From positions 29,698,001-29,762,000 of the forward strand of contig OX638162.1 of NCBI GenBank assembly GCA_951804945.1: a DNA stretch of 64,000 nucleotides, written 5' to 3'. This document shows, piece after piece, positions 10,241-55,920 of this stretch; position 1 is the stretch's first letter; each line of letters opens with the position of its first letter. The translations under genes and the position numbers were made by a program. The stretch is from Podarcis cretensis. Its lineage: Eukaryota. Under the pieces are notes generated by a model. That model made no database searches and was not told the DNA's origin. It saw only the letters and a list, made by a program, of their open reading frames with translations.

Positions 10241-11164
10241 AACTTGGGTTGAGTGCTGCCACCATGATGTATGAGACAGTCAGTTGAGGTGAAAGGACTG
10301 TGAGACCTGCTGGGATGAAAGCCAGAAAACTGGGTCTGTCAGAGAAGCAGTATAGTGGCAGTTGCTTGGGTTGAGCCTGACATATTCATTCAAAATGCAT
10401 ATATTCTGCTTCATAGCCCTTAAGAGGCTCTCAAAGCAGTTTACAAAAGATCCTCTCATTCAAGTAAGTGTGGTACCAAGGAGCAGAACTAACATGTCCA
10501 TGCAGACCCTGTATGATTCAGTATTTCAGCTAAGGGATGACAAATGTCCTGTGATGTCTGCTCTGTCATTCCTCCTGGTACAGTTGGAAATCACACGTTT
10601 CCCAAATCCATACCATATGCCAGAGGTAACCAATGCAGTATCCTCCAGAAGTTGAACGGCCAGTGGTCAGGGAAGAGTCCAGCAACGCCTGGAGGACACC
10701 ATGTTGGCCAGGCCCAGGTGGAACTTGTCCTGTTAGAGTAAAGTTATAAACTCAAACACAAAAAAACCTGCTGGTCATTGGCGGAGGGCCCAGCCAGCTT
10801 AGCCCACTGTTACAACCACCCCAACCTCCAGATGTTTTGGATGGCAACTCCCATCAGCCCTCAGAAGTTATGAACTGAAACTCCTATTAGCTTCAGCCAT
10901 CATGGCTGTGCTCCCATCAGCTCCAGCATCCTACAGTTGTGGTGGCTGGAGCTGACATGGGAATTGTAGTTCAAACCATCTGGAGGGTACTCGGTTGGGG
11001 AAGGCTACTCTATTATGCATTTCTCAGTTTTCCAAACTAAGCTTTTATGGATTCCTTTTAAAAAGAAAAATTTTGAATACAGCAGATATAGGAAGTGTTA
11101 GTTTGTGCTCTTGGAAAGTCCATTGTGGTGGCTGCTCCAACCTGCTGAACTTGGCAAATCCTTT

Positions 11165-11319
11165 GTGTGATGGCTTAAGTTGTTGTGCAGACTCTTGCTG
11201 ATTTGAAATGCATTCTTGACTCCTATCTTTCTGCAGAGATCCTCCGTGTGATGGCTTAAGTTGTTGTGCAGACTCTTGCTGATTTGAAATGCATTCTTCA
11301 CTCCTATCTTTCTGCAGAG
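11165..11319. repeat. Tandem duplication, 2 x 74 bp (period 81)
   Basis: 11165-11238 and 11246-11319 differ at one position; 7-bp spacer ATCCTCC. Confidence 0.95.
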
Positions 11320-13901
11320 GGGTTGGTTTTTCAAGTTTGAGTGCATGCAATTAATTATTAAGATAGGAACTTCAATCTCAAATCTTGCTAACTTCCATAT
11401 CAATCAGTTACCTAGAAAAGCATTTGTGTGCTGGTTCTGATACAGTTGACAATATATTGCGATGGGTCAAACTGGGACAGTACACTCCAGCTCTAAAGCA
11501 TTTTCCACTTATTCCTTCACCTTCTGTGTCGTGGAGCTTACCTGAGGAAGCTTGGATCTCCCTGTACTCCCCCGCCCCCTCAACTCCTGTATTGGGTTTC
11601 ACATTGTGCAGGGAGGAAGTCCACTGTTGTGAAAGGGGAGAGGCGTTGTCTTTGCTGGTCCACAGCTGTGGCTGGTAGATCTGGCTTCAGATGGCATTCC
11701 TTTGCTGTGCGTGTTTCTAACACTGTATCACAGAGAGTTCAGGTCTGGGAAATAAAGCTCACATTGGAACACCCACAGGAAGTTAAAATGATGGTGTGCC
11801 TTGTAGGTCTGACCTGCTGCAGGTTAGTGCTGACACACCTGTCTGCCTTGAGAAGCATTGACAACAATGCTATGACTTAAATAGACAGCAGAGGGGTGGT
11901 TGTGTTGTGTGAACTTCATTCCCTCCCAGTCATTGTGTAGCATGCAGAGCAACTGAGCAAGGAAATCGCAGCCCTCAACAGACTAGCTTAGCAATGCTGT
12001 GTATGTCAGAAATTACATTTAAATGCTTTTGTAAACTTACATAGCCTTGTAGGCCAACTAATGATTTACTGTTTCCTTTTAAAAACAAATCCTCAGTTGT
12101 CTTTAAAGATACTGCCTTCCAAGTGTGTAATTCTTCTGAGTTATGATTTCCATTACTTGAGTTATGGACCCTCCAAGACCCCATCCCTGCTACTCCTGAA
12201 AACCCAATGCTTTTTTATTCTGGTGCTCTGACTCTAGCAATTCTTGGATGGAAGATGAGCCCTGCCAGCATTAACCCACCTGTGAGGAAGGTGACGCAGA
12301 ACCCTTCCAAAGTTGGCCAGTAGACCACAGTTTTCTTCCTATTGACCAACCAACACTTTGGTCCAGTTGCATTAAATCTGAAATGTTGAGAGGTTGTTGA
12401 AAAATATTTGAGCTGTTTTGGCTGCTTGAGGGTTTCAAGATTTATTTCATTCATTCTCTCTGTCTCTCTCTCTCTTTATGGCATGGGACCATTGAGGACC
12501 AGGCAAAGGGCCTCATCTCCTCACCAACACACATGCCCAGACAGACACTCTTGTTGTCTAGTTTGGAGGTTCAATGGAAAGCAACTTGTTCTCTGCCAGC
12601 TCCAAGGCTGCGTGTTTCTGACAAGCAGGTCCCTGTTTCTTTTGCCTCTGAATATTTTCTCATAAGAGAGAGCCCTTCTCCTAACCTGTAGGATGCTTTG
12701 TTTGTTAAAGCAGAAGCTTTCCTCTTAAATAACCTATTTATTTTTCATTGGATTGTGTGCGCTTTTTTTCAAACAAGGATTCTTACAAGTCGCTTCACCA
12801 TCCATTTGGCCAGATTTATTTTCTGCTAGGTTGAGAATCAAGTCTCTTTCCCTCCGCCTCCACGGGAAAGAGGGAGAATGTGAAAAAAAAGAAAAAAAGA
12901 CTTTTGCATTGTGGTGATTGGCACAGCCTGTGAATCAAGGGTCATTTTGTGTAGCTGTTTCTTTTCAAGCATTCTCTCTCTCTTTCTTTCTTTCTTTCTC
13001 TCTCTCTTCCCCCTTCCATGCACAATCTATTCAGGCTGGAAGCATTCTTTCTTTTCAGAGTCTTTTCTGCCTCTCTCTCTCTTTTCCCCCTCCTTTATTT
13101 TTCATCTCTTTTCATTCTGTTTCCCTCCACCACCCCCCTAGAGGCTCTTTTTTCCCCTTTCCTCATTCCTCTATTCAGTTCCCTTTTTTTTTTGGTTGCT
13201 TCTTTTAAAATAGCTTTTCTATTTTCAGAGAGGACAGGGAACATGTAGGAAGAGAAGTCGTTTCAGAAAGGAGGAACCTGAAAGTCTTTCTCCATTTATT
13301 TCAGCAAACGTTGTTTTTCAAGCAAGAGAACCAAGGGCGACAAAAAGAAACCCAACTTTATTTTGTTCCCACAAACAGCGCAGCCCCAAACACCCCCCAG
13401 AGTATTCATAAGTGGTCACATCTCCAGTAATATGCTAAAATACTGGCAGCTTTGCTTCTTTATTATGTTGCCCTGGGCATTTTGGTGCAGAGACTAGAAA
13501 CACAAGAGGCATGGCTGCTTTCCTGGATAGACCCCATTGATGCCCCTCTTTGCAACTTCAGACATCACCCATTTCTTTTAGCTCTGCACCAAGAGTTGTG
13601 GGGTGCAGGGCCCACTTGGATGCTGCCTTTAGAACAATTTGTCCTTCATGGTGAACCTTCAGCAGGGAGCTTAGGAGATCTCTGTGCTAATGCAGAGAAC
13701 AATTTTGTGGAAAGCAGCAGTGAAGACTTAAAGTTGTGTAATCTCAGGTTTGTAGATCTCTAGATGTGCATTGCTTAAAGCATTGACTAGCCCCCAATAG
13801 CCACGTTAATCAGAATTGCGTGGCGAGTTCCCGCCCCCACCAGGATAAATAAAGACACAAGACACCGTATGTAAGGTTAATTGGGCGAATTAGGCCACAA
13901 C

Positions 13902-13907
13902 TTTATT
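13902..13907 (-). terminator. Poly(A) signal of the retrotransposon
   Basis: AATAAA on minus, followed by a GT-rich element GTGTCTTGTGTCTTT (~13851-13865). Confidence 0.65.
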
Positions 13908-14243
13908 GAATTCAGGAATGAGAGGCATTGGCATAGGCATTGGTCCTAACGGCTATCCGGCTCCAGCCCATTTGCTGGAGACACGGGGAAGGGTTAACCT
14001 TATATCGGGGGAGACTCCCGCAAGGCACGTCGACTAGGAGCTCCCCCGGGTCACCGCTCTGGGGCGTGCCTTTGGCCCACACCTCCATAGGCTTCGGACA
14101 GGGCCACGCCCCCCGGGGTCCTTTAACGGACCACCCTTCGCTCGCTGGGGGGAGGTGATGGCGTTCCTCCCCCACACACATCGTCTTAACCCCTTCTTAC
14201 CAATGCCTACTGCCACACGAGCAAACGCTCGCCGCCAATACTC

Positions 14244-14813
14244 TCATGCCTGAAACCAATCCCTTATCCCCATAGCTATGTCCTCAAGCCATATATCATT
14301 TCCTGCATCAGACAGATGCACGCCATCAAACCAGTAGAGGGCCTCACAGTTGAAACGAATGCCCGGGTGTCGTATGACTTTTCCCCCCAGGGCTGCCACT
14401 CTACGTACCACCGCCCGATCCACGGCTTTCCTCGCCCTATTTATGGCCATCGGGCACCTGCAATCTCTCCAAACCCGCCTCTCCATCAAGGAGGCCCAAA
14501 TGATTGTGAGGTTTGGGTAAGCAGCCTTAAGCTCCTCCAAATCCCCGAGTATGTGCCACTGCAAATCAGCCGCCTTTCTATAGGCCAAATCGTTTTCACC
14601 CAATTGTAAAAGTAAAGCATCCGGGGGGCCCTCTCTCGCGACTCTGGTCTCGAATGCGGGCAACATCTCAGCCCAACGCATTCTCCTCCGTGAAACCCAG
14701 GATATCGTGATGCCATCAGGCAAGCCCAGTCGCGGCCCCAGACCGGAATTGATGGCGCGGACCCTGGCCCAATGCACGATGCTGTGCCCGATTATCCAGA
14801 CGTGCACCCCCAT
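14244..14813 (-). CDS. SGNH/GDSL-type hydrolase (esterase/lipase-like), 189 aa, element-encoded
   Basis: Block I IIGHSIV, block III LQLGENDL, block V DGVHLS; block II appears altered (SRRRMRW). Confidence 0.85.
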   Translation of the reverse strand: MGVHVWIIGHSIVHWARVRAINSGLGPRLGLPDGITISWVSRRRMRWAEMLPAFETRVAREGPPDALLLQLGENDLAYRKAADLQWHILGDLEELKAAYPNLTIIWASLMERRVWRDCRCPMAINRARKAVDRAVVRRVAALGGKVIRHPGIRFNCEALYWFDGVHLSDAGNDIWLEDIAMGIRDWFQA

Positions 14814-14870
14814 ATCTCCTGCAATAAATCAAAGAACAGGCCATGGTCAGTAAAATCCCCAGCTGGGATG

Positions 14871-15800
14871 TCATAAATTCTTTCTCAGGTAGCGCTTGTA
14901 TGCGTCCGATTTCCAGCGGCCTAGATCCTTGATCCTCTCGGCCGTAAGGCCCAGGTGCATTGCCGTGGTGGCCGCTCCAATCCTAAAGGAGTGTGCCGCG
15001 AAATCTGCTGGTGGGAGGCCACATGCTTTAAGTGTTAAGCGCATGACCCTGGTGAACTGGTGCCGCGTCAGGGGTACGCCGTCTGCATGGATCAATAAAG
15101 GCCCCGCCATGTTAGGTCTCATAAACAAGAAGCGCCTGGTGTCCTTCACTGGACACGGGCCTAGTTCCCCTGTTGCCAGTAGCCGGACCAGAGCACCCCT
15201 CCCGAACTGGTCTGTCTTGGAACTACGAATCCGCACGACCAAATCTTCACGTGAAAGTGTAATGTCACTCAACAGTAAGCCCCGGGAGGAGCCATGCTGA
15301 CCTTCCTCAAAAACCACCTCACCCACATGCATTGCCCCGAAAAATGCGATAGAGTATGCCGCTGAAAACAAGCGTGCCTCATACTTTGACCAACAGACCG
15401 TTCTCAACCTTTTATGGATTTGGAAAAGTATGTCAAAAGATATAGGCCTCCTCGCATCCCGGGCTGGGGGCTGCAGTCTACGCCAGCCTTCTAGGGTCTT
15501 TCGTATGACGAACTCAGCGCATGGATCTGACGAAAATAACGCTTTGCAAAAGAAAGAAATCGCTGTGGCCTGTAAGTTGAGGGTTTTTGGGGCACATCCC
15601 CGGCATTTCAAGTGCACTAGATAGGACAAGACCTCAGACCTGATGGGAGGGGCGTTGCTCCTGGCGGGGCTGGATTTTTCACGGAACTTTAAGAAATCCG
15701 ACCACGCCTTCCTATAAGACCTCAATGTGGAGGGCGCCAATGAGGCTAATACTCCCTGAATCACTTCTGGTTCCCAGGACTCTGGTCCCCAAGTCTCCAC
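14871..15800 (-). CDS. Tyrosine recombinase (lambda integrase family), ~309 aa; true start uncertain
   Basis: SLAPSTLRSY N-terminal region; FFGAM[H]VGE, SKTDQ, HSFRIGAAT, GRWKSDAYKRY motifs; frame open from ~15892; track start is GTG. Confidence 0.92.
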   Translation of the reverse strand: METWGPESWEPEVIQGVLASLAPSTLRSYRKAWSDFLKFREKSSPARSNAPPIRSEVLSYLVHLKCRGCAPKTLNLQATAISFFCKALFSSDPCAEFVIRKTLEGWRRLQPPARDARRPISFDILFQIHKRLRTVCWSKYEARLFSAAYSIAFFGAMHVGEVVFEEGQHGSSRGLLLSDITLSREDLVVRIRSSKTDQFGRGALVRLLATGELGPCPVKDTRRFLFMRPNMAGPLLIHADGVPLTRHQFTRVMRLTLKACGLPPADFAAHSFRIGAATTAMHLGLTAERIKDLGRWKSDAYKRYLRKNL

Positions 15801-17479
15801 AGCTGTTCCGGGAAGGGCTGAGGTAGTAACTGAGCATCCGGTGCTAACGAGCGGAAGCGGTCCATCTGAAAACGAGATAGGGCATCCGCGATGTCATTGT
15901 TAACACCAGGCACAAATTTAGCCGAGAAGTGGATATTAAGTTCTAAACAGCGGAGAACAAAGGAACGCAGAAGGGCACCAACTCTTGAGGAATGCGCGGC
16001 CTGCCTAGTAAGGACTGCTACTACCGCCTGATTGTCGGTGTGGAAGCAAACCCTATGGTTGCTAAAGACCTCTGACCATAGGTGGATTGCCACTACAATC
16101 GGGAAGAATTCTAGGAAGGTTAGATCTCTGGTAATGGGCCCTCCCCTCCAGGCTTCAGGCCAACGCTGAGCACACCATTGCCCCTTACAATAAACGCCAA
16201 ACCCGAGGGAGCCTGAAGCGTCCGAATGCACTTGAAAGTCCACCTGCAGTGACAAGTTCTCTTGCCATAGGGAAATACCGTTGTAGTTCTCGAGGAACTT
16301 CAACCAAACTTGTAAGTCAGATTTTACTTCCCTAGAAAGCCGAATCCTATGATGAGGGGAACGCAGGCCTGCCGACAGCTTCGCGAGGCGACCACAGAAA
16401 GGACGGCCAGGGGAAACCACGCGGCAAGCAAAATTTAGATGACCAAGAAGAGCTTGTATCTGCCTAAGTGTAACTTTTTTAAGGGGGAGGAGTTGCTGAA
16501 TGAGGTCACCAAGTGCCACCAGCTTCTCTCTGGGCAGTTTTGAGGTCTGCGCTACAGTGTCCAACTCGATGCCTAAGTAGACCATGGTTGTAGCTGGGCC
16601 CTCCGTTTTGTTGTTGGCTAGGGGAACTCCTAGCTCCCCTGCTAAAGATATGAAAGCTTTGAGAAGCTCTGCACACCCCTGCCTGCTATCAGCCACGAGG
16701 ATAAAGTCGTCCAGGTAATGCGACACACCCTCCGAGCCAGTTCTAAAGCGAAGGGCCCAGTCCAAGAAGGTACTGAATGCCTCAAAGGCTGCGCAGGCCA
16801 CTGAGCAACCCATGGGCATAGCTTTGTCCACAAAATAAGCCCCCTCAAATTTGAATCCGAGGCACCGGAAATCTTCCGGGTGCATTGGCAGAAGCCTAAA
16901 GGCCGACTCGATGTCACATTTTGCCAGCCACGCTCCCTTACCAAATTCGCGAATGACTTTGACCGCATGGTCAAAGGTGGCGTATTTCACTATACAGAGC
17001 TCCTGCGGTATCGCATCATTGACGGACCCACCTTTTGGATAGGAAAGGTTGTGAATCATGCGAAACTCGCCAGGCGCTTTCTTGGGGACTATGCCTAAAG
17101 GGGATACATGAAGGCCAACGATTGGCGGAGCTAGAAAGGGACCGGCTACCCTACCTGCTTTGATTTCTTTGCTAATTTTCTTCCGGGCCACCTCCGGCAT
17201 CTCCCTGACTGACTTCTGATTGGGGGGGTTGCCCGAATTGGGTGGAAACGCTACCGGGATTCTGAAACCAGTACTAAAACCCTCCCATAAGTACACTGCT
17301 GCTGTCCTATTGGGGTAGATGTCTAAGAGGTTTTTTAACGGGGCCAGCTTGATGGGGGAATAGGCCAATTCCAAATTAAGGTTACTGCCTGTTCCCTTGA
17401 GGTCCGAAAGAGGCTCCCTGGCCACCTCTGGGACCGTGATTGTAAGAGCCCCTTCCACCCCGAAAGGGCTGCCTCCCTT
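15761..17479 (-). CDS. Reverse transcriptase + RNase H (pol), probably expressed as a gag-pol fusion
   Basis: KCDIESAFR, MPMGCSVAC, YLDDF; RNase H SDAS, FLEFFPI, TDNQAVV, DIADALSR; frame opens just after TGA at 17482-17480. Confidence 0.95.
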   Translation of the reverse strand, partial: KGGSPFGVEGALTITVPEVAREPLSDLKGTGSNLNLELAYSPIKLAPLKNLLDIYPNRTAAVYLWEGFSTGFRIPVAFPPNSGNPPNQKSVREMPEVARKKISKEIKAGRVAGPFLAPPIVGLHVSPLGIVPKKAPGEFRMIHNLSYPKGGSVNDAIPQELCIVKYATFDHAVKVIREFGKGAWLAKCDIESAFRLLPMHPEDFRCLGFKFEGAYFVDKAMPMGCSVACAAFEAFSTFLDWALRFRTGSEGVSHYLDDFILVADSRQGCAELLKAFISLAGELGVPLANNKTEGPATTMVYLGIELDTVAQTSKLPREKLVALGDLIQQLLPLKKVTLRQIQALLGHLNFACRVVSPGRPFCGRLAKLSAGLRSPHHRIRLSREVKSDLQVWLKFLENYNGISLWQENLSLQVDFQVHSDASGSLGFGVYCKGQWCAQRWPEAWRGGPITRDLTFLEFFPIVVAIHLWSEVFSNHRVCFHTDNQAVVAVLTRQAAHSSRVGALLRSFVLRCLELNIHFSAKFVPGVNNDIADALSRFQMDRFRSLAPDAQLLPQPFPEQLWRLGDQSPGNQK

Positions 17480-18989
17480 TCATGCAGGCCGTAGATGGGT
17501 GACTACCAAAACATCTTTCACATTCGTGACTGTACTTACAGGCCGGCCTCACACAAACCCCTTTATTAAATTCCCAACATAGGCGCTTCTGCTTGGCGGC
17601 GGTCCTCCAAGATTTTGATGGATCCTGGTACTTTTTTTCCACGAAGGGGCCCACATGGTCCGACCAATAGTTTTGGTCCCTCAGGTCCCAGCGCGTGGAG
17701 GGTAGCAAAGAAGCATTTCTACGAAAATCCTCGTCGTAATTCAAAGCAGCAATATCACCCGCTAATTCCCGCGCCCTCCGAATATGGGCCAAGTATGCAA
17801 TCAAATGCATTGCCCGTTTAGGATAAGCAGCGCTGACCACACCCATGAACACCTGGAACCCATTGAGCCAATTGTCGAAGGTATGCTCGGCTCTTGGTGC
17901 TCTGTACCTGCGCTTCCCGTAACTGCGCCTCTTTTCTCCTTTCCCTGTCAGTTTTGCGGGGGGCAACAATCTGAATATGTCAATAAAATCCCCATTGAGG
18001 ATTTTGTCCCTTTTCCTTTGAGATAAGTGGTTGCCTACAATGAAATCTGAGGACAAGTGAGTGGAGGTTTTTACGTCGGGCACCAGGGAGCCATCCTTCC
18101 ATTCCAGTGTCCCATTGAAGGTCTTACGGTAGGAGTTGGCCCTCCTTTCATGCGCCCATGCGGGAAGACCCACGCAATCCTCCCCATGGCCCCAATACTC
18201 CTCCCTAGGAGCATCACTATCAGAATCGGATGAGGAAGAAGTACCTGAGTCCTCCTCGGATTCCGACCGCCTGCTCTTCTTGCTTTTCTTGGACGTGTGC
18301 TTCCTTTTTTCTTTCCTCTTCCCCCACGGGACCTCAGGGGGGGTCTGCTCCGGAATGCTACTTGCAATTACCGCCTGTCGATCGTGCACTTCCTCATCCG
18401 AAGTTGATTCCGACGCGCCCTCGGCTGGCGCCGTCTGCGGGGGCAGGATCTGAAAAAGACTAGGTACACCTGGGTCCTTTTTAGGGTTAGTAGCCTTAGA
18501 GCCCTGGGCGCTAGCCTTGCCCTTCGCGGCTCCCCTCTGGCCTCCTCTTGACTTGCCTGAGGAGGCCGACTGAGAGCTGGTGTTTTTCTTAAGCCGTCCT
18601 GCAGCCTTTTTTGCCGCAGTCAACACAGCCACCGTGGATGCAGAAGTGCCGGGAAGTACTACCTCCCTAAGTTGAGAGTCTTCGATGTAATCCTGGGAGA
18701 ACGCCATTGGTGCAGAAGGCGCTGATGGTCCTGCTGCCGTTGTCATTGGCGACACGATTACTGGTGCAACCGCTGTTGGCGCTGTCGTGATTGTCGTTGG
18801 AGCTGCTGCCCCTGGCGCGGGTGCCGCTTGGCCTGCGGACCTGCTTTGTTTATAAAACTCCTGAAAGGCAGTGAAAAACTGGGCCAAAGCCTGAGGGTTA
18901 CTAGGAATAAGAAATGGTTGAGACTCCTCCTGGTTCCCTTGGTTCCCCCCAGATACAGCGTCATTTACCTGATTACCCTGAGCCGACAT
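17382..18989 (-). CDS. Gag-like protein, 535 aa, with C-terminal Cys/His zinc-finger cluster
   Basis: ATG at 18989 (MSAQGNQ); low-complexity Ala/Ser/Lys N-terminal half; CWEFNKGVCVRPACKYSHECERCFGSHPSTAC; RG-rich tail. Confidence 0.85.
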   Translation of the reverse strand: MSAQGNQVNDAVSGGNQGNQEESQPFLIPSNPQALAQFFTAFQEFYKQSRSAGQAAPAPGAAAPTTITTAPTAVAPVIVSPMTTAAGPSAPSAPMAFSQDYIEDSQLREVVLPGTSASTVAVLTAAKKAAGRLKKNTSSQSASSGKSRGGQRGAAKGKASAQGSKATNPKKDPGVPSLFQILPPQTAPAEGASESTSDEEVHDRQAVIASSIPEQTPPEVPWGKRKEKRKHTSKKSKKSRRSESEEDSGTSSSSDSDSDAPREEYWGHGEDCVGLPAWAHERRANSYRKTFNGTLEWKDGSLVPDVKTSTHLSSDFIVGNHLSQRKRDKILNGDFIDIFRLLPPAKLTGKGEKRRSYGKRRYRAPRAEHTFDNWLNGFQVFMGVVSAAYPKRAMHLIAYLAHIRRARELAGDIAALNYDEDFRRNASLLPSTRWDLRDQNYWSDHVGPFVEKKYQDPSKSWRTAAKQKRLCWEFNKGVCVRPACKYSHECERCFGSHPSTACMKGRQPFRGGRGSYNHGPRGGQGASFGPQGNRQ

Positions 18990-19224
18990 ATCTTCAATCA
19001 ACGCCCTGGATTGCCCAATCGGAGGCAAGAAGCTTAGTTGTTATGTGTTAGCAACAAGCAGTGGTCTGTACTGTAGTTCAGTATTGACTGCACTGGACGG
19101 ACTTAGCACAAATTAAAATCACTGGTAAGCGACCCAACTGCCAGCCCCACTGGCTGTGTTAGCGTCAAGTAAGATATTAGCTCAGTACTGTCTGCACCGG
19201 TATTGCTCTAGCTGGTATAAAATT

Positions 19225-19350
19225 AATGGTTTCTTATTTTTATTTTATATTAATTTTTATATTAAATTATATTAATTTATTCTATTTTATTTTTTTATTT
19301 TTTTATTTTTTTATTTTATTTATTTATTTATTTTATTTATTTATCTATTC
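19225..19350. repeat. AT-only low-complexity tract, (TTTA)-like
   Basis: Direct reading. Confidence 0.85.
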
Positions 19351-19663
19351 ATATAACCTTATGCAATTAAACCAGCTGATCACTAAGTTGACCACTTAGC
19401 CAAATTAGGAAAATTAAGCTATACCCTTACAGCAGCGAGGCTAGACTGCCCGTGCCTATGTAATTAATTAGATGCCAGTTAAATCTCTTGCAAAGTAGAT
19501 TAGGTCTAGATAACCTTTAAAATTAGATTATATTGATTAGAGGCACACTTGAACTAATTATGCTTTACCCAAGGCAAGCACTTTAATTTAAGCGAAATCA
19601 GCAACGTAAAAGCACCAAAACTAGATCAAATTCAAAGAAATAAAATCTGAGTACAATGAAGCA

Positions 19664-19910
19664 AAGTAAAATAACAAGGAAAATGGATGAAATTAGGTTA
19701 AATCAAATTAATTTAAATCGAAGTAAAAATAAGGCCAATCGCAGTAAATTAAGGCCAATAACAGTAATACCAGCAAAGTAAAATAAAGGAAGTAAAATAA
19801 CAAGGAAAATGGATGAAATTAGGTTAAATCAAATTAATTAAATCGAAGTAAAAATAAGGCCAATCGCAGTAAGGCCAATAACAGTAATACCAGCAAAGTA
19901 AAATAAAGGA
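19664..19910. repeat. Tandem duplication of a ~120-126 bp unit in the element leader
   Basis: AAGTAAAATAACAAGGAAAATGGATGAAATTAGG starts at 19664 and again at 19790. Confidence 0.9.
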
Positions 19911-20533
19911 ATGAAGCAGTAAATCCCAGAAATGCCAGCAAATAAAATCAAGTAATAAGGCAGCAAAGGAGTGACGACTGAATTGCCTGCGCAGCACCCA
20001 CTGCAAAGGATTGAATGCTAGTTGCTGCTCGGCCAGAAATAAATTGCCCCTTAAATCACCTTTCAAATTTACTAAAGAACCAAGTTAAGATTTATTTAAA
20101 TGATAAGAACAATTGTGAGGCAATTGCCAAACACACACACTCCCACAGGTGACTGCCTATACTAAGATGGCGGCCACTACGGAAGCAACGTGCTCCAGCA
20201 AAATGGTGCCGGGACCAGCTGGTCGCTAGGCAATGGTGCCGACCGCTGTTGAACAGATCAATCCGGCCCTAAGAAAGCAAGCGTTGTAATCAAATGCCAA
20301 CAAAACGAATGAGTGTAGCACGAAATTAGACGTTGCAGAAAGTTAGAAGTTAAACCCACTTTCCTAGTACCCTCCTGAATTAGCCAAAGCAAGGATAAAG
20401 ACGCAATAAAGACTTAGTTCCCACGTGGCTTGCCTCTCTTAAAATGGCTGCCGCCGCAAGGCCACGTGGTTAATCAAAATGGCGGCTGCAAGCTACCCGT
20501 TGCCTAGCGACGCCGCACAATTTCCCAGTTCAG

Positions 20534-20596
20534 GGCTATCAGACAAATACTATCAGGCACTGCAGGCTATCAGACAAATACTATCAGACAAATACT
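20534..20596. repeat. Short repeat CTATCAGACAAATA x3
   Basis: Direct reading. Confidence 0.85.
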
Positions 20597-21224
20597 AGCC
20601 CCGATTCAGGGCACGCCAAGCTGCAAAGTAATGAGTAAAGGCTAGCGCTGCACTTCGAAACGGCTCCTAAGCCGTAGTGGCACAAGCGGACCACTCGACC
20701 GGCGAGTTCCCCCCCCAAAACCAATACGTTACCGCTGCTGCCTTCGGGTTCACTGGAGATCACCCGTGCGGCCGGAGAGAGGGGAGGAAGATGCCGGAGG
20801 GTGGCTGCGCGGACGGTAACCAGCTGGCTGGCGGCTGGCGGGCTCCCGCAGTTACGAGGTGACCGCAAAGGATAGAGTAATTCACCCGAAGAAGTCGAAG
20901 CGCTGAAGCGGTTCCTGCAGGATGAATGAGGCAATGGCAGCCGCAAGGAGAAGGTGCTCTGGCCGCTGCGAACCAGCCTTTATTCTTAGGCTAACACCGC
21001 CAGCTGTGCAGCGGAGCGGCACGAAGGAGGCAGCCGAGGTTCCTTTTCGCCGGCGAAAGAGCAGGTCGGGAAATCCTTGCAGCGGGAGTGGAGCAGTGGG
21101 AGAAACAGTAACCAAAGCCTGTAAAGGAAAACTAGAAACCGCGTAATTGAACCAAGCACAGAAACCTGCAACAAAGTATACGAACCTCCAGGAAGACCTC
21201 CAAAACGTGGGGGCGAGCCGGCGA

Positions 21225-21425
21225 AAAGAGGGCGAGCCCCCTCCGCGCTGGCCCTAAATAGGGCAAGCCACGCCCCCCAGCCGACCAGCTGATTGGCTAG
21301 CTGGGGGGGGGCAGGCCCCGACGGGGAATCCCCTGCTCTCGCGGGGGCTGGTGCCAGCCCCCGCTCACGTGGGGTGGGCGTGAGGCCCGCAACCCCACCT
21401 CCTGGGGCAGGCCCGGAAGTGGCTT
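21225..21425 (-). promoter_or_regulatory. Putative Pol II promoter of the retrotransposon
   Basis: On minus: TATTTA (21260-21255) and CCAAT (21296-21292); also GC boxes, E-box CACGTG (~21366) and ETS CCGGAAGT (21413-21420). Confidence 0.55.
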
Positions 21426-24400
21426 TTTTGAGCTCTGGCAGGATGCCACGAATACAGGCCCTTTGTTTATTACGACTTCCCAGCCTCTTATCTCCTGAAT
21501 TTCATTGTTGAATTAGTGCCTTTTAGTAGTAATTGTCTTCTGTAGTATTGATAACACTTTGCTTTGGGGAAAGAGTGTGAATTCTCCATCCCTGCTGGAG
21601 AGGATCAGGCTTGCAGGTGGTGGAAGGAGAGGTATAGCCAAGGGCAGAAAACTGCAACTCAAGTACTTCTTCCTGTGCCATTAGAGAGAAACCGAGTTCT
21701 TCTGTGAAAGCCTATGATACAAGAGTGCCTGGCCCTTTCTCAGATGGTTCTCCTATGACAACCTTCCCTAAATCAGTGGCTTCCACATGCCACCTCCCAT
21801 CAGATCCAGCATCACATGGCTGGACTGGCTGGGGTTGCAGTCCTACGTCAATTCCTCAACAAGAGATGGTTGGTCAAGAAATGAAGACGGGAGTCATCCA
21901 GTAGACATGGATTTCCAAAGAGAGAAGTGGAACAAGTCTTGAGAGCCAGAGTGTTGGGCTAGGTAAACCTCTGTCCCAGTCCAGCAAAAGCCAATTCTCA
22001 GGTGCTTATGCTTTTATTCGTGTCAGGGCATAAAAAGTCTGAAGGGGGCTGATGTAGATGCTTGTTTTCTGTGATGGAGATGCTCTCAAAAGTAGGAGGG
22101 TTGAGAGAACCTGCTTCAAATGAAAGCAAAGGTACAGATGACTAGGGAATAGGGACACACCTGTCTGGAATCCAAACATGCACCTGAGTTGGTTCTATGG
22201 TGATGGTGATGTGCCTGCTTCTGTGGGAAGCAATCCTGGCTGTCCCTACGTAGCGGTTGGATCTGGTTGGTTTCTTGAAGGTTGGCTTGGTGTGAAGAGT
22301 GTCCCCTTCAGGTAGGAAAGTGGGTCTTGGTGTGGGTGGTCAGCCACACACTTTGGGGATTAAAGAGGGAGGTAGCCAGTGAGAAGGGACTCCATCCAAA
22401 ATCCATACACCTTGCAGAGCCTGGCTTTGAAAGTTTCTTCCACCCACCCACCGAAATATGTGATTCAAATCTAATGTCACCTGGAAGCTGAGATGGGACA
22501 TTAGAGGAGATGGAGGTGGGTGAGAGAGCGGGGTTGGAATACAGAAGGAGATTAAGAGATTGATGAAAGTGAGAGAGAAAGAGAGAGGAGATAAGAGAGG
22601 CACACAGGACTGAACTATCAAGCTGAGAGAGGCGTTGCCAGGGTAACGGAAAGAATGAGGGAGAGAGAGAAAGATGGAGAGAAGAGGCAAGAATCAGAAA
22701 TGGAAGGGAAGTGAGAGGGAGGGAGAGCAGGCAATGGATTTTAAAGGGTGAATGAGAGAAGCAGATGGGTTTTAAAGGCTGAAGCGGCTGGACAGGCTGA
22801 CACACACACGACAACTAAAAAAAAAAAAAGCTGCCTATGCCCACAATCAATAATTCTAGGTGGGCTACCCTCTGGCACCTTTGCTTAGGATTGCTACCAT
22901 TCTGTGCCCAGGACATGCCGGCTGGCACAGAAGTGGCTGCCATCATGGCCAGTCTCCAGCTTCAAGGCTGCCTCCTGTGAGGAGGGAATCAATACTGTTG
23001 TTCCCCTTTGCCTCTACAGCCCATTGACATGAAAGTGTGCTTAACAGGGGCCCTCCTTGCATTGTGGTGGAGCTTGCATGCAAAATGGGTCAGGCACGGA
23101 GGCCAGCCTGCGGGTCACCACATGGCCTTCTCCTGCTTGTCTCTGGGTGACCTGATGGGCCCCTTCTTGGCCCTGCTGCGCTCATTGCCGCCTCCGCCTC
23201 CTCTAATCCTCCCCCATACCCAGCCTCCTTCCTTCCTTCTCTCTTCCTTTCTTCTCCGATGCCTGCCAGCCCCCTCTTCTCTTCTCCTTCCTCCTCTCTC
23301 CTTCCTGCCTCCTCCCCTCTCTCCTTTGTTTTGGCTGCCTCCATACACTGCTTTCTCCTTCCCCCTCCTCCCCCCACCTGCCTCTTGCTATCTTTCCCCC
23401 CTCCATTTCCTCTTTTTGTCTTCCCTTGTTCACATTTCTTTTCTCTGCACCAGCCATCCTCACCCGCACAGGGTTTAAGAGCATGCAGGCAGCTCTGGCG
23501 GAGAATGAGGTTCATTTATTTCCAGTGGTTCAAAAGTGGGAAGTTCTGAGGTTGTTCTGTCTAGCTGTTCCCTTTGCCTCAGGGTTAGTCCAAGCCTGGC
23601 TTGTCTTTCTGCTCTGCACCCAGGAAGACTGGCTTTGTATTTCAGGTGAAGAACAGTTATTCTGCCTCTTCTGGTCCTGCTAGCCCCATACTGGGGGAAG
23701 AAGCAGTATCCCCCCCCCCCATGCTCTCCTCTCTCTGTCTTAGCTTTCTGGTTCTTCCCAGTCACACAAAAAGCACATACTGAGAGGGGAGGTCCTAGGG
23801 TTCTAAGGGCTGCCTCCTAGGTCCGAGTCCTGCCTGGCCCTGCTTGCCACCTTCACAACCAAGGAGGCTGCTGTGCCCTTTCTTGTAGAAAGGAATCCAG
23901 CCCAACCTGGTGGGCGACAACATCCCAGTACCTGGGGAGGTGCAGCAGTCAGACTGCCTGCTCTTTCTAGAAGTGCAGAATTTGCCACATTTGGGGAGGC
24001 TCCTGACCTGGCATGCAGAAACCTTCCCCCCAGGTATCAGATAGAAGGCCACAAGATTTTGCTACACCCTGAGCCCTTTACAATAAAGAATAAACACAGT
24101 GCAACTGAGCCATTGTACAGGGCTCTATGGAATACCGGTATATGGTTTCTGCTAGTCTTGGGAAATGGTAAGGATATAAATGTCTGGCCTGTCATCTGGC
24201 CACTAGGCATTCCCACCACCACCATCCCTCATTCTGCCAGTGAAGCACACCCATGTTTAGATTGCAGGTTTTGCTCCATTTTCAGGAGTGCAGAATATTT
24301 GTTTAGCTCCAAAACATGGGATGCTTTCTGGTTCTAAGCTCTGCCCTTTGGTGTTCCTTTCATTTTAAAGGCTATGTCCAGAGTAGATGCCACTTTCCAT

Positions 24401-24529
24401 TGCCATGATTTTGGAGCTGCCACCTAGGGCTCTCAGCCCACAGCCCTCTGCTTGGCCAACAGGGTAATGGCTTCTCTTTCTCCCCTTTGTTCCTGCAGAC
24501 AACAGAAGCTGTGCTTGATGGTATGAGCC

Positions 24530-25954
24530 ATGGACCGCTTTGCCCACTCTGGAACACAGACAGATGCCGTGGTGGTGCTGTCTCTGGCCCAAGCAGCCGT
24601 CCTGGGCTTGGTGACTGAGAACGAGTTTTTTGGTGCCACCGTCAGCCCCGGAGGTTTCTTCTCCAGCTTCGCAGGCAGGCTCGACGGCATGTCCATGGTT
24701 GAGTTGAAGCAGCCGGAAAGCCATTGCCCTCTGGAGAATGAAGGCCAAGGTCACATCGAGCCAGCGGAGGAGGATGAAGCAGCAGAGGCTTCCTTCGGGA
24801 AACATGCCCGGAGGAGGAAGCGCCCGCCTGTGAGGCTGGTGCCAAAAGTGAAGCCTGAGAAGGGGGAGTGGGGGCAGGAAGACGGCGCTTACGAAGCATC
24901 AGTAGCAAGTGAGGGCAAGGAGGAGCAGATGGGCAACCACCCTGTGAGCCTGGAGGAGTCCCCCTGTGAGCAGACAGTGCAGAGCAGCGCTACCAAGATG
25001 ATAGATCTCAGCACATTCAACAGGAAGCCTCGACGCCTGCGGCACCTGCGGCAGCAAGCTCCAGAAGAGCTGTCCCTGGGCGGGTATGAGGAGAGGCTCC
25101 CAAGCACCCCACAAGCCAGCCTGGACAGCACTCCGGGGAGTGCAGAGGTCTTCTCCAGTGACTGTGGCTTCCAGGCTGGTGCTCCTCCTCCCTTGATCAA
25201 TCTGGAGCATCCTGTACCACACTCTCCTCCGGGGCAGGGCAAGAGCGAGCTGGGCTTTGTGTGGCAGGAGCCCCTGGACTTTGAGGCGGAGGCCCACGGC
25301 GAGCACAGCAAGAAGGTTCAGCTGGACCGCCTGGACATCAATGTCCAGATAGACGACTCCTACCTGGTGGAGAAGCGTTGGCNNNNNNNNNNNNNNNNNN
25401 NNNNNNNNNNNNNNNNNNNNNNNNNNNNNNNNNNNNNNNNNNNNNNNNNNNNNNNNNNNNNNNNNNNNNNNNNNNNNNNNNNNNNNNNNNNNNNNNNNNN
25501 NNNNNNNNNNNNNNNNNNNNNNCTCACCCACCAGGGCACGCGGCCCCACAAGTGCCAGGTGTGCCACAAGGCCTTCACCCAGACCAGCCACCTCAAGCGC
25601 CACATGCTGCTGCACTCCGACATCAAGCCCTACAGCTGCCGCTTCTGTGGCCGCGGCTTCGCCTACCCCAGCGAGCTGAAGGCCCACGAGGGCAAGCATG
25701 AGAGCGGGCGCTGCCACGTCTGCGTGGAGTGTGGCCTGGACTTCTCCACCCTCACCCAGCTCAAGCGCCACCTGGCCACCCACCAGGGGCCCACCCTCTA
25801 CCCCTGCCCAGAGTGCAACAAATCCTTCCATTACCGCAGCCAGCTGCAGAACCACATGCTCAAGCACCAGAACGTGCGGCCCTTCGTCTGCACCGAGTGT
25901 GGCATGGAGTTCAGCCAGATCCATCACCTTAAGCAGCACTCGCTGACCCACAAG
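24530..25954 (+). CDS. ZNF710: ZNF710 coding exon 1 (C2H2 zinc fingers; contains a 140-N gap)
   Basis: Acceptor TTCCTGCAG ending 24498; MDRFAHSGTQTDAVVVLSLAQAAVLGLV; LDRLDINVQIDDSYLVE; C2H2 fingers; donor AAG|GTAGGC. Confidence 0.95.
25383..25522. other. Assembly gap (140 N) inside the ZNF710 CDS
   Basis: N run. Confidence 1.
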
Positions 25955-26384
25955 GTAGGCCAGGCAGCAGAGCACCAGCTTGAAGGGCGGGGGGGGGGTG
26001 TTGGGTAACCGAAGCCTTTTCCCATCCGTGGCTCTAAGGGCTTTTATAGAGGAGTGTGTGTGTGTCTACCTGCAGTGCCCTGAAGGGGTACCCAAAGGGC
26101 TTCACCTTAGCTGGCTTGCTCTTTTTGTTGTCCTTGGTCACCACAGACCTGGATTCTGAAAAAAGAGGCCTTGCCACAATTTGGGTTAAAACAGCTTCCA
26201 TAGGAGGGAGGGAAGGAGTGGGGATCCAAAATGCCCTGGTCTCTTCCCCCTTGCTCTGAAATCCCCCAAACACTACTGAGCATGAAATCACCATGGTTAG
26301 CCCTGTCCTCCTTGGCAAAGGTGGGATTGGGTGGTACCTCTTGGCTGCAATGAAGCCTTGTTACCTGCTTGCTGTTGTCTTCAG

Positions 26385-33539: not shown

Positions 33540-33990
<451 letters not shown>

Positions 33991-34158
33991 GCTCCTTGCC
34001 AATCCACTGCCCTAGCACCAGCCACTCCAGCCATCCCAAGAGAAAAGAGGAACAGCTGCAATCTGCTTTGGGCTGAGGGACTTCCTCTTGGGAGAGGGGA
34101 CCTGGAGTGCAGGTCATGCCAGATTCCTTGAACCCTGCCATGGGCATTTCCCATGTAC

Positions 34159-34324
34159 CTTCCACGCGGGCTTCATCGGGGGTGATTGTGGCACACTTGA
34201 CAGCCACGCTGTATTTCTGGGTGGCCAGGGCAGAGTCTATGGTGACCTGGTCATCCGTCTGGTCCCGATTCGGCAGCCCCAAGTCAAAGTACTTCAGCTG
34301 GACATCTACGTTGGGCAGGATCAG
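34159..34324 (-). CDS. IDH2: IDH2 exon 3
   Basis: 166 nt; [21 protein letters not shown]...[13 protein letters not shown]. Confidence 0.97.
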
Positions 34325-35133
34325 CTGTGCCGGGATGGGAGGAAGGCAGTGAGGACAAAGGTATGTAGATGCAGACCCCGCAGTAGAGATCAACACACCA
34401 CCGAGCAAGTGCAGAAGGCCCATCAGAGATGTGCCCCAGAAAGCTTCCACACAATACCCTTCCCGTGCATGCAAAAAGCGCACTTAAAAAATTAATAATA
34501 ATTACATGTTATTCACACAATTCCCCTCCTGTTGCAAGGATGGTGTGTTCTGCAAGCTCCATTTGGTCTGTGGGGAAATGGGACACTAACCTGCCCCAGC
34601 CTCCCCAACTCCAAAGTTGGTGCCTTCTAGATATTTTGGACTACAACCCCCATCAGTCTCAGCCAGTAAAGCTCTGCTTCCATCAGCCCCACCATCATGC
34701 AGCCATGTTTGCTGGGACTTAAGGGAGTTGTAGTACAAAAGAGCTGAAGGGCACCAGGTTGGCAGGGGCTGCCTGACTTTATATAACTCATTCATTGCTG
34801 CATGTGGAATACGGCTGTGTTAAATGTCATCATCTGGTTTACCTAAGATATATCCAAGGATGTTGAAAATTGTAAGGAAAAAACCTGGCTCTCTCCCCAC
34901 ATCATTCGTAATGTTATAAATCTCTTATCATACTTCCCCTGGGAACTTTTTCAAAGCTGAGAAGCCCAGACCGCCTTAGCCTACTGGAAGAAACATCTTC
35001 CAGTCCTCTTTCTATTGCCCCTTTCCTCACCCTTCCACAAACTGTGAGCATATTAGAAACATGACTGTGCTTCCAATGCACATAGTCCTTGCTGCTTTAT
35101 TCCCAGCCCCTCGGATCCAAAACTTCCAGGTAC

Positions 35134-54929: not shown

Positions 54930-55740
54930 GTCGCGTGCTTTGGTTCGACGGCACCGCCAGGCGAAGCCCCAACGAGGGTAGCTGCCTAGCTCGGGATTGG
55001 AGCTTCAGTTTTGGAGGGCGGGAGAGAGGAGGAGAAGGAGGAACCGCATGGGGGTGGTGCGGTTCTGGGAGAGATTAGCAAAGGGACGTTCAGGGCTGCT
55101 TTCAACGGCCGGGGAAAGATGTTGGGGCGGGGCCGGCCCTCGGAGCTTCACCCACATCTCCTCCTCCTCCCTTTCCCTCTCCCTCTCCCTCTCTCTCAGG
55201 TCCGGACCTGTCTCTTCCCGAGGGAGGGGGCGGAGGCGCGGCCACTCCCGCCCCGACGGGGGAGGAGGAACCAGAAAGAGCAGCAGTCCGAGCAGCTCCG
55301 AAGTTTTGCAACTTGATCCGCCTGCCTGCCTGGTCGAGCGAGCAAAGCCTCCGACGCTCCGCAGCCCGCCGCTGCTGCTGCCCAGGCCCCGCTCCCCTCG
55401 GACCCACTGCGCCATGGGGCTCCGGAAGTCGGCGCTGCTGCTGTTGGGAGCGCTCCTGGCTGCCGCTGCCGAAGAGGAGCCGGTGCCGCGCCTGAGTCTG
55501 CGCCTCGGTAAGCCTGAGAGGTCGGGGGCGGCCCAGCCACAGCGGAGGCCCCGTCGAGGGATGCTCCTGGCTGGGGAAACGGCGGGGGACCGGACCGACG
55601 CTGCTGTCTCGGCCTGCCCCTTCGGGGTCTGGTTGGTGGGGGGCGCTGATATTTCACGCTGCTGGTGGGGAGAAGGAGATCTCTGCAGGCTGATGGGGTG
55701 TTTTAGTATCTTACGGGGGCTCGAGGGCGTGGAGCCCAGG
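54930..55740 (+). promoter_or_regulatory. SEMA4B: CpG island / SEMA4B promoter
   Basis: CpG-dense; GC boxes ~55123 and ~55226. Confidence 0.75.
55414..55507 (+). CDS. SEMA4B: SEMA4B first coding exon (signal peptide); remainder lies outside the window
   Basis: Kozak GCCATGG; MGLRKSALLLLGALLAAAAEEEPVPRLSLRL(G) resembles recalled human MGLRS...PRISLPLG; donor G|GTAAGC; synteny with IDH2. Confidence 0.8.
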
Positions 55741-55920
55741 GTCTTTTCCTTCTGCTCTTTGTAAAGCACCTGGAATACTGACACCCCCCCCCCTAGAAAG
55801 GCTCCGTGAAGAGGTTTTCCCTTTGACCTTCTTCCTCGATGCCGCGAGGACTGCCATGGCACTTTTGGTCTCCCCATTGGTGTCGGAAGCCTTGAAAGGG
55901 GGCCACCAAGACCATCCAGC

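Follow-up and report, generated by a model that had tools for sequence, protein, structure and literature searches.

Ngaro retrotransposons, a superfamily of the order DIRS, are defined by split direct repeats, the lack of a methyltransferase and an optional SGNH hydrolase frame located after the tyrosine recombinase (YR) (PMC9210276, PMC3783388; these and all sources below are cited for the part of each account that was covered). In Xenopus, DIRS-53_XT and DIRS-54_XT carry four overlapping open reading frames (ORFs) in the order gag, reverse transcriptase and RNase H (RT/RH), YR and SGNH, have no methyltransferase, contain split direct repeats with an A repeat of 236 nt and show recent activity (PMC9210276). 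Here we describe a retrotransposon on the minus strand of a 64,000-nt stretch of the genome of the lizard Podarcis cretensis (GenBank assembly GCA_951804945.1, contig OX638162.1, positions 29,698,001 to 29,762,000), hereafter the window. Its family shares all these traits with the Xenopus pair, with an A repeat of 222 nt, and the Xenopus proteins are about 50% identical to the lizard RT/RH. The two differ in the B repeat, of 152 nt in Xenopus and about 400 nt in the lizard, and in a unique spacer of 161-183 nt between A2 and B2, which the lizard elements have unlike DIRS-53_XT and DIRS-54_XT as described (PMC9210276). With it, the known Ngaro superfamily gains a new lacertid member. The window copy by itself is ordinary; the interest sits in the signals of its family.

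The original prediction, made from the letters of the window, had proposed a young Ngaro-like element with four open frames inside intron 1 of ZNF710. The four stop-free minus-strand frames are confirmed, at the lengths given in Table 1. ORF2 matches the Pfam family RVT_1 above the cut-off (7e-14), while the best matches to phage-integrase families (4e-5) and to GDSL lipase (3e-6) both fall under the Pfam cut-offs, and no Pfam family matched ORF1. The SGNH ORF gave no match in a sequence search of solved structures; its predicted fold (predicted local distance difference test score, pLDDT, 96) matches SGNH/GDSL esterases, including the esterase of the retrotransposon ZfL2-1 (PDB 4c1b; Foldseek 3e-7). 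RT/RH and a tyrosine recombinase are present together with no DDE integrase, and the order gag, RT/RH, YR, SGNH fits the Ngaro scheme. The window proteins gave no Pfam match to a methyltransferase, and 31-37 residues separate the last RNase H motif from the stop in five of five elements (37 in the window copy). Split direct repeats are found in the family (11 of 20 sister copies, and other families) and not in the window copy. The Ngaro-type identity proposed at the outset is supported, given the missing methyltransferase, the SGNH frame after YR and sister copies with split direct repeats arranged as A1-body-B1-A2-B2.

The closest RT relatives come from lacertid lizards (68-77% identity), followed by other squamates and amphibians (about 50%), and these protein relatives carry the label uncharacterized. 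In a tree of 46 RT rows, none of them a named reference element, the window RT is nested within the families of this genome and the proteins of lacertids. Three other assignments were rejected. A DIRS1-like element is ruled out by the absence of inverted terminal repeats, of any internal complementary region (ICR) as well as of a methyltransferase; a PAT-like element, by split repeats that come with no methyltransferase; and a VIPER-like element, by the position of YR after RT/RH and by a lizard instead of a kinetoplastid host. In VIPER, YR precedes RT. Searches of this genome for a DIRS1 outgroup returned no Dam-family match, 15 LAP2alpha loci that yielded no RT and, with a longer protein, five matches that all lack a methyltransferase.

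Twenty sister loci were drawn from the 39 non-self rows of a genome search, and 11 of them read A1-body-B1-A2-C-B2, where A measures 222 nt, B 401 nt and the unique spacer C 168 nt. A1 is 99-100% identical to A2 in young copies, and so is B1 to B2; A1 equals A2 inside one copy, whereas A varies among copies. The window copy reads A1-body-B, and A2, spacer C and B2 are all absent. To cover other families (RT 66-89% identical), twenty further loci were picked from 72 rows and yielded another eight complete elements, and split repeats also occur in divergent families (RT 66-86% identical). This genome harbours no fewer than eight diverged lineages of the Ngaro type that have open RT frames, and in several of them the repeats are 100% identical. 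As an exact 16-mer, the B end occurs 407 times in the genome. Read depth over B is far above that over the ORFs, and was not used as a copy number.

Copy forms were counted in 86 loci in positional order, out of 95 loci in the first 100 matches listed. Among these matches, 54 of the 86 loci are short A-C-B forms of about 790 bp, and the rest comprise nine body-B copies, five two-B copies, 16 other short forms and two unclear cases. One two-B copy, L117 (G000:C6:79622030-79632029), has lost its internal B1|A2 junction at a microhomology. We propose that one-B copies, the window's included, and A-C-B forms would arise by loss between repeats, after or during insertion. They could also be direct products of a single junction, made from an RNA ending in B1 or from a short RNA promoted by A2, a reading whose chances we put a little below even. 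The excess of A-C-B over body-B copies (54 to 9 among the matches listed), found although the B repeats are longer and closer together than the A repeats, speaks for direct products, and so does the one-B copy L008, 99.8% identical to the two-B copy L002. However, that ratio could be skewed by selection against long copies. Two-B copies are mostly young (four of five at 97% or more in B), as if repeats were lost over time, the short forms carry the diagnostic A deletion of full-length masters, and solo AB repeats have been interpreted as recombination products in PMC8547959. Because of the same shared deletion, an independent amplification of the A-C-B forms is not favoured.

Signals were compared across 10 complete elements from divergent families of this one genome. 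A hairpin of 39-41 nt is predicted to straddle the B|A junction, with the crossover at an internal loop. Across 13 rows (one of them, L110, with no A after the B end), 92% of the cells are paired and 7 of 13 pairs change on both sides, a covariation score reached by none of 500 shuffles; the hairpin is more stable on the plus than on the minus strand in nine of nine cases. This is computationally an attC-type layout: an imperfect hairpin, kept in structure and variable in sequence, with the crossover at the outer stem. Since the outer stem needs the B end, it is impossible in the window copy. At the insertion point, AA precedes A in 60 of 65 copies, a purine stands at -4 in 61, and G is rare at +1. 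A flank duplication was seen in one of the 65 copies with an A start. Five A-less copies combine a precise B end with a flank duplication of 13-245 bp that starts at or next to the AA core: L001, L093, L016 and L104, four of the 32 loci where no A start can be recognised, plus L116.

These data bear on the classical scheme, in which a full double-stranded circle forms and is joined to the target by the recombinase, at a short core, in two strand exchanges; the hairpin at the start of A then belongs to the RNA or the promoter, and the motifs have roles in transcription and RNA handling alone. It is the standard model for the order (PMC3266345, PMC7192593), and it agrees with the clean insertion of most copies at a 2-3 nt core without duplication and with hairpin covariation that is mostly inside A. 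However, a double-stranded circle has two identical junctions, so that permuted insertions are expected, and the permuted form A-C-B-A-body-B was found at none of 31 exact genome junctions (16 + 15 mapped; two undecided). The scheme also leaves unexplained the pairing of the B end with A, and the precise B ends and long flank duplications of the A-less copies. We consider it unlikely.

The left end carries a second pattern. In seven of eight young truncated copies, A is joined to internal sequence at offsets 196-224 via short microhomology, a clustering with p about 7e-6 against a uniform position in A. This count refers to young cases checked by eye; a wider count of 13 of 17 was set aside because it includes old copies whose A simply diverges near the R-like end of the repeat. 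Two copies with a foreign leader break at the same place in A. Spacer C, for its part, starts with four C3 tracts, which form a G-quadruplex motif on the minus strand. There is one such run per element (10/10), lying 0-4 nt past the end of A1/A2 identity (10/10), its C3 tracts constant and its loop bases variable; the background for motifs of this type is 12 per 400 kb of strand, and the run was found behind the first A in 0 of 33 copies.

Alternatively, the left end could be rebuilt by a jump of the minus strand from the RNA 5' end to A2 of a second RNA, like the first transfer of retroviruses, the C-run being, instead of a DNA stop, an RNA site for a poly(C)-binding protein (PCBP) that aids processing at B2. 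Repeats of CCCN are a known PCBP-type site, the C-run is found only upstream of B2, and breakpoints within R suit a jump to the RNA 5' end. The acceptor RNA would nevertheless also offer U3 and C, yet the breakpoints end at 224; besides, the first A runs into C in 0 of 33 copies and A1/A2 identity stops within 4 nt of the C-run in 10 of 10 elements. This jump seems to us quite improbable.

Further candidate signals concern the RNA. In A1, we take a set of motifs to be the CCAAT, GC, TATA-like and initiator-like parts of a promoter for RNA polymerase II (Pol II). CCAAT, the TATA-like box and the pyrimidine tract keep the same order in the A repeats of other families, and transcription would start at the pyrimidine initiator-like sequence. 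The core of spacer C is 75-88% identical even where A stops aligning, and the spacer is predicted to form a multi-way junction, with 98% of the cells paired, two-sided change in 4 of 27 pairs and z of -1.3 to -3.6 for the core. With the 1.5 kb at the 3' end of a two-B copy, Rfam gave no match up to an E of 10, thus no known ribozyme or RNA family lies there. Only at B2 could the bases that follow AATAAA, themselves invariant, pair with an invariant 8-mer from the end of C. At B1 alone, the sequence upstream of the repeat pairs with bases before AATAAA, in a predicted helix that reaches them in 7 of 10 elements and is also present in the window copy.

Searches for these signals outside the family gave little. 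In 80 metagenome loci (RT 34-49% identical) there was neither a C-run nor a match to the spacer model, which is uninformative either way since these loci mostly end before the repeats, and no relatives were found in viral contigs. Two distant metagenome relatives have GYCAC/GTGGC-like complementary bases by AATAAA, as a local hairpin (L184:7280-7310, L215:4800-4830). An old spacer-like match of 49 bits to the covariance model occurs in L130:7400-7522 (minus strand), a locus fetched for another purpose.

As to translation, gag and RT overlap by 98 nt and RT and YR by 133 nt. The RT frame lies at +1 relative to gag in 13 of 13 elements, which suggests a +1 frameshift between them. RT homology starts exactly at the gag stop, in the +1 frame (window 17382-17400; 13/13). 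The first 50 codons of the YR frame are without ATG in four of four elements checked. A pyrimidine tract and AG precede SGNH in 13 of 13 elements, and an ATG behind them is absent in several. In one distant family (L205, L208, L210, L212) an SGNH match lies upstream of gag, where tandem copies or another gene order may be involved.

Taken together, we hypothesize that the family replicates via a short DNA of the plus strand that crosses its internal B|A junction, a stop at a G-quadruplex, a rebuilding of the left end and the insertion of a folded single strand at a host AA, the window copy being a likely dead-end one-repeat product; we see the chances of this reading as even. Pol II would initiate about 190 nt into A1, and the genomic RNA would pass through B1 and end in B2, with the B1-only helix and the B2-only pairing biasing the choice of poly(A) site; SGNH would be made from a spliced RNA. 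Minus-strand DNA would begin near the RNA 3' end, for which the folded C and the pairing behind AATAAA are the best candidate for a priming or packaging signal. Plus-strand DNA would then run from B1 over the junction and A2, stall at the minus-strand G-run at the start of C and transfer by its R end onto the end of the minus strand, a mis-transfer yielding copies with A plus a truncated body. The new single-stranded junction would fold and undergo one strand exchange with a host R-B-A-A|H site, to be finished by host replication or repair, and aborted insertions would give the A-less copies with long flank duplications. If only the newly made single-stranded junction is a substrate, the internal junction would never be used and aborted insertions would keep a precise B end.

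Several observations weigh against this proposal. We infer the start and poly(A) sites from sequence. All compared families are related and belong to one genome, so that the counts overstate independent events, and the sequences compared are also those from which the structures were derived. In the junction hairpin, covariation lies mostly in the inner stem, wholly inside A, and one outer-stem B-to-A pair alone changes on both sides (two sequences, from separate clades). In the spacer, 16 of the 27 pairs never vary, and the 226-nt sequence around it folds no better than shuffles (z -0.19). The B1-only helix falls short in the clade of L108, L122 and L123, its cognate arm is the best partner in only three of nine rows (mean -32 vs -23 kcal/mol), and the AATAAA hexamer is not consistently more paired at B1. 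No duplication is seen at the majority of the 32 loci that lack a recognisable A start, many of which are old. Finally L003 (G000:C13:37202705-37212704), a very young one-B truncated copy, has a breakpoint at offset about 164, outside R and upstream of the TATA-like box, and a 191-bp flank duplication despite an intact A start.

It is tempting to go further and to propose, tentatively and as a possibility that we would not favour in a wager, that Ngaro elements integrate like integron cassettes: from a plus-strand strong-stop DNA, halted by a G-quadruplex where A2 meets the spacer, via an attC-like hairpin over the B|A junction and a single exchange, with a four-way spacer RNA clasping the RNA 3' end to prime or package. 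If true, the system would be one of single-strand recombination in a eukaryote, and split-repeat elements would gain the replication scheme that has been missing for them. For each step the family offers short and defined candidate signals, namely a junction hairpin of 40 nt, a G-run of 15 nt, a 100-nt spacer RNA and two alternative pairings of B. YR elements that can leave long flank duplications upon aborted insertion would, in addition, mislead repeat annotation.

Regarding the window copy, a contig from a related species fuses window position 13815 straight to 21425. The empty site that the original prediction suggested looking for in related lizards thus exists, and 13783-13815 and 21425-21431 are host DNA. 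The first proposed bounds (13783..21431) were too wide, the true ends being 21424 and 13816 and the last 33 bases belonging to the host. Over about 1,590 bases of flank, 25 substitutions separate the window from the related species, and the insertion shows no target duplication other than the shared AA core. In three samples of a closer organism, contigs reach 22-28 bases into both element ends (the bar for bridging being 31 bases) and single-copy fragments of the window copy's leader are present; no empty-site joint was found among the matches listed. The excess of CpG noted earlier was borne out, with an observed/expected ratio of 0.70 inside the element against flank values of 0.19 and 0.24.

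The host gene is ZNF710, as proposed, with a downstream plus-strand exon 98% identical to a Podarcis raffonei protein. The element lies antisense to it, upstream of the first coding exon, and a stretch rich in CpG, bearing a candidate donor at 1803, lies at about 1.5-2.5 kb on the far side of the element from that exon. From these candidate donor and acceptor positions, the placement in intron 1 is likely. The same intron contains two tandem 81-bp copies, 96% identical (window 11158-11319). Window 33971-34483 and about 55000-55800 resemble IDH2 and the start of semaphorin 4B, which we take to be the usual neighbours of ZNF710.

The family has been recently active, as first supposed: its newest burst is 98.8-99.8% identical internally, besides the near-identical repeats of young copies. 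The ORF block of the window copy is 93.4-94.4% identical to its closest sisters, thus the copy called young is recent by sequence comparison but does not belong to that burst. Its changes relative to the sisters are mostly synonymous (ratio of nonsynonymous to synonymous change, pN/pS, 0.17-0.24), and its private changes amount to pN 0.9% and pS 3.1%. At the first catalytic position, its recombinase deviates from every one of the 27 other copies that yielded the motif, out of 34 examined. Because of this altered position and of the missing A2-spacer-B2 tail, the window copy is probably an inactive dead end.

Table 1. Features of the Ngaro-type element and its host context in the window.
Feature	Positions	Strand	Basis or remark
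Whole element, one-B form (A1-body-B), 7,609 bp	13816..21424	-	Ends common to 20 sisters; empty site in related species
Host AA target core	21425..21426	-	Kept in empty site; AA before A in most copies
A1 repeat, ~222 nt: left recombination half-site, promoter-like part, R-like end	21202..21424	-	92-95% identical to sister A
A-side arm of predicted junction hairpin	21388..21424	-	Counterpart B end adjoins A in complete copies
Candidate Pol II promoter: CCAAT 21296-21292, GC box 21275-21268, TATA-like 21260-21255, initiator-like 21231-21224	21224..21296	-	Sequence motifs
R-like segment, rejoining place of truncated sisters	21202..21231	-	7/8 young truncated breaks at A offsets 196-224
Leader, long, subfamily-variable, with AT-rich tract and internal tandem duplications	18990..21201	-	Sister comparison
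ORF1, gag-like, CCCH/CCCH-type zinc-knuckle motif at end	17382..18989	-	Frame open from 19040 (17382-19040, 552 aa)
ORF2, RT (YLDD) and RNase H, no methyltransferase	15761..17479	-	572 aa; Pfam
ORF3, tyrosine recombinase, open frame	14871..15893	-	340 aa; Pfam phage-integrase (under cut-off)
Predicted 3' splice site (branch-like CTGAC, pyrimidine tract, AG)	14819..14850	-	Just 5' of SGNH ORF
ORF4, SGNH hydrolase	14244..14828	-	194 aa; 22 relatives keep the catalytic Ser, Gly, Asn, Asp and His unchanged
5' arm of predicted long-range RNA helix	14199..14260	-	Part above 14215 outside B, found only before B1
B repeat, ~400 nt, strongly folded, right recombination half-site at end	13816..14215	-	98-99% identical to B of young sisters
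3' arm of predicted long helix, AATAAA (13907-13902) and invariant GTTGTGGC	13894..13944	-	GTTGTGGC can pair with spacer end in complete copies
ZNF710 first coding exon (host context)	24499..26008	+	Protein match; acceptor 24498, ATG 24530

One subfamily also carries host sequence. In L011 and L012, with a remnant in L004, the leader contains about 470 nt of CpG-rich host sequence from contig C6. The captured stretch (L012:1090-1580) comes from a host first exon in a CpG island (G000:C6:24314884-24315442, minus strand), ends at the canonical host donor and is joined to an acceptor-like site in the leader of the element. L011 and L012 share three short deletions relative to the host copy and form a young subfamily. 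An exon captured via splicing and then retrotransposed is the likely origin, and this subfamily would have moved a host first exon about the genome. A template switch at a 3-nt microhomology is an alternative that the joint leaves some room for. No source copy was found in the 50 kb downstream, nor on that contig among nine matches, and an atlas search with the captured exon gave no match. Behind A1, L004 has an inverted copy of R and 26 nt of the captured exon, whose end corresponds to the putative transcription start.

Compared with known systems, the novelty first claimed for this element stands in part. The layout of four ORFs with SGNH and split repeats is known from Xenopus (PMC9210276), and what is new lies in the signals at the level of the family. 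The cis-signals proposed as undescribed are borne out at that level too, though mostly in parts that the window copy lacks. The portion covered of the Xenopus account mentions no promoter, G-run, junction hairpin or breakpoint pattern (PMC9210276). A literature search found no description of the family's signals, part of which may be described by Goodwin and Poulter (2004), in the papers of Poulter and Goodwin (2005) and of Poulter and Butler (2015), in the Xenopus supplements or in Repbase/Dfam.

Scattered short A-(spacer)-B forms are shared with the solo AB copies of the Cafeteria Ngaro and with SIRE of VIPER (PMC8547959, PMC6681497), and in SIRE, too, about 30 bp of unique sequence separate A from B (PMC6681497). 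The lizard short form differs in its length of about 790 bp, its conserved structured spacer and its being the majority form; both papers leave the origin and mobility of the short forms open in the parts covered (PMC8547959, PMC6681497). With DIRS-1 of Dictyostelium the lizard family shares an internal copy of the circle junction, a proposed single-stranded complementary DNA (cDNA) and the absence of target duplication, while the inverted repeats, ICR and methyltransferase of DIRS-1 (PMC7192593) are all absent from the lizard element. The DIRS-1 cDNA is single-stranded and mostly linear, and its primer and the specificity of its recombinase are stated there to be unknown (PMC7192593). The ORF1p esterase of ZfL2-1 likewise places an SGNH fold inside a retroelement (PMC3905857; PDB 4c1b); in the lizard it is a separate, probably spliced ORF of a YR element.

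The likeness to the integron reaction of attC with attI extends to the way in which the system may work. Both involve a tyrosine recombinase and a hairpin with an outer stem, an unpaired spacer, an inner stem and a variable loop; in both, structure is conserved over sequence, the crossover follows AA and the strands are asymmetric, and for both a single exchange completed by replication has been proposed (PMC5027507). The comparison is one of working principle only, since on the lizard side we deal with a eukaryotic retroelement, a predicted hairpin of no more than 39-41 nt and a loose R-B-A-A|H target (PMC5027507 for the integron side).

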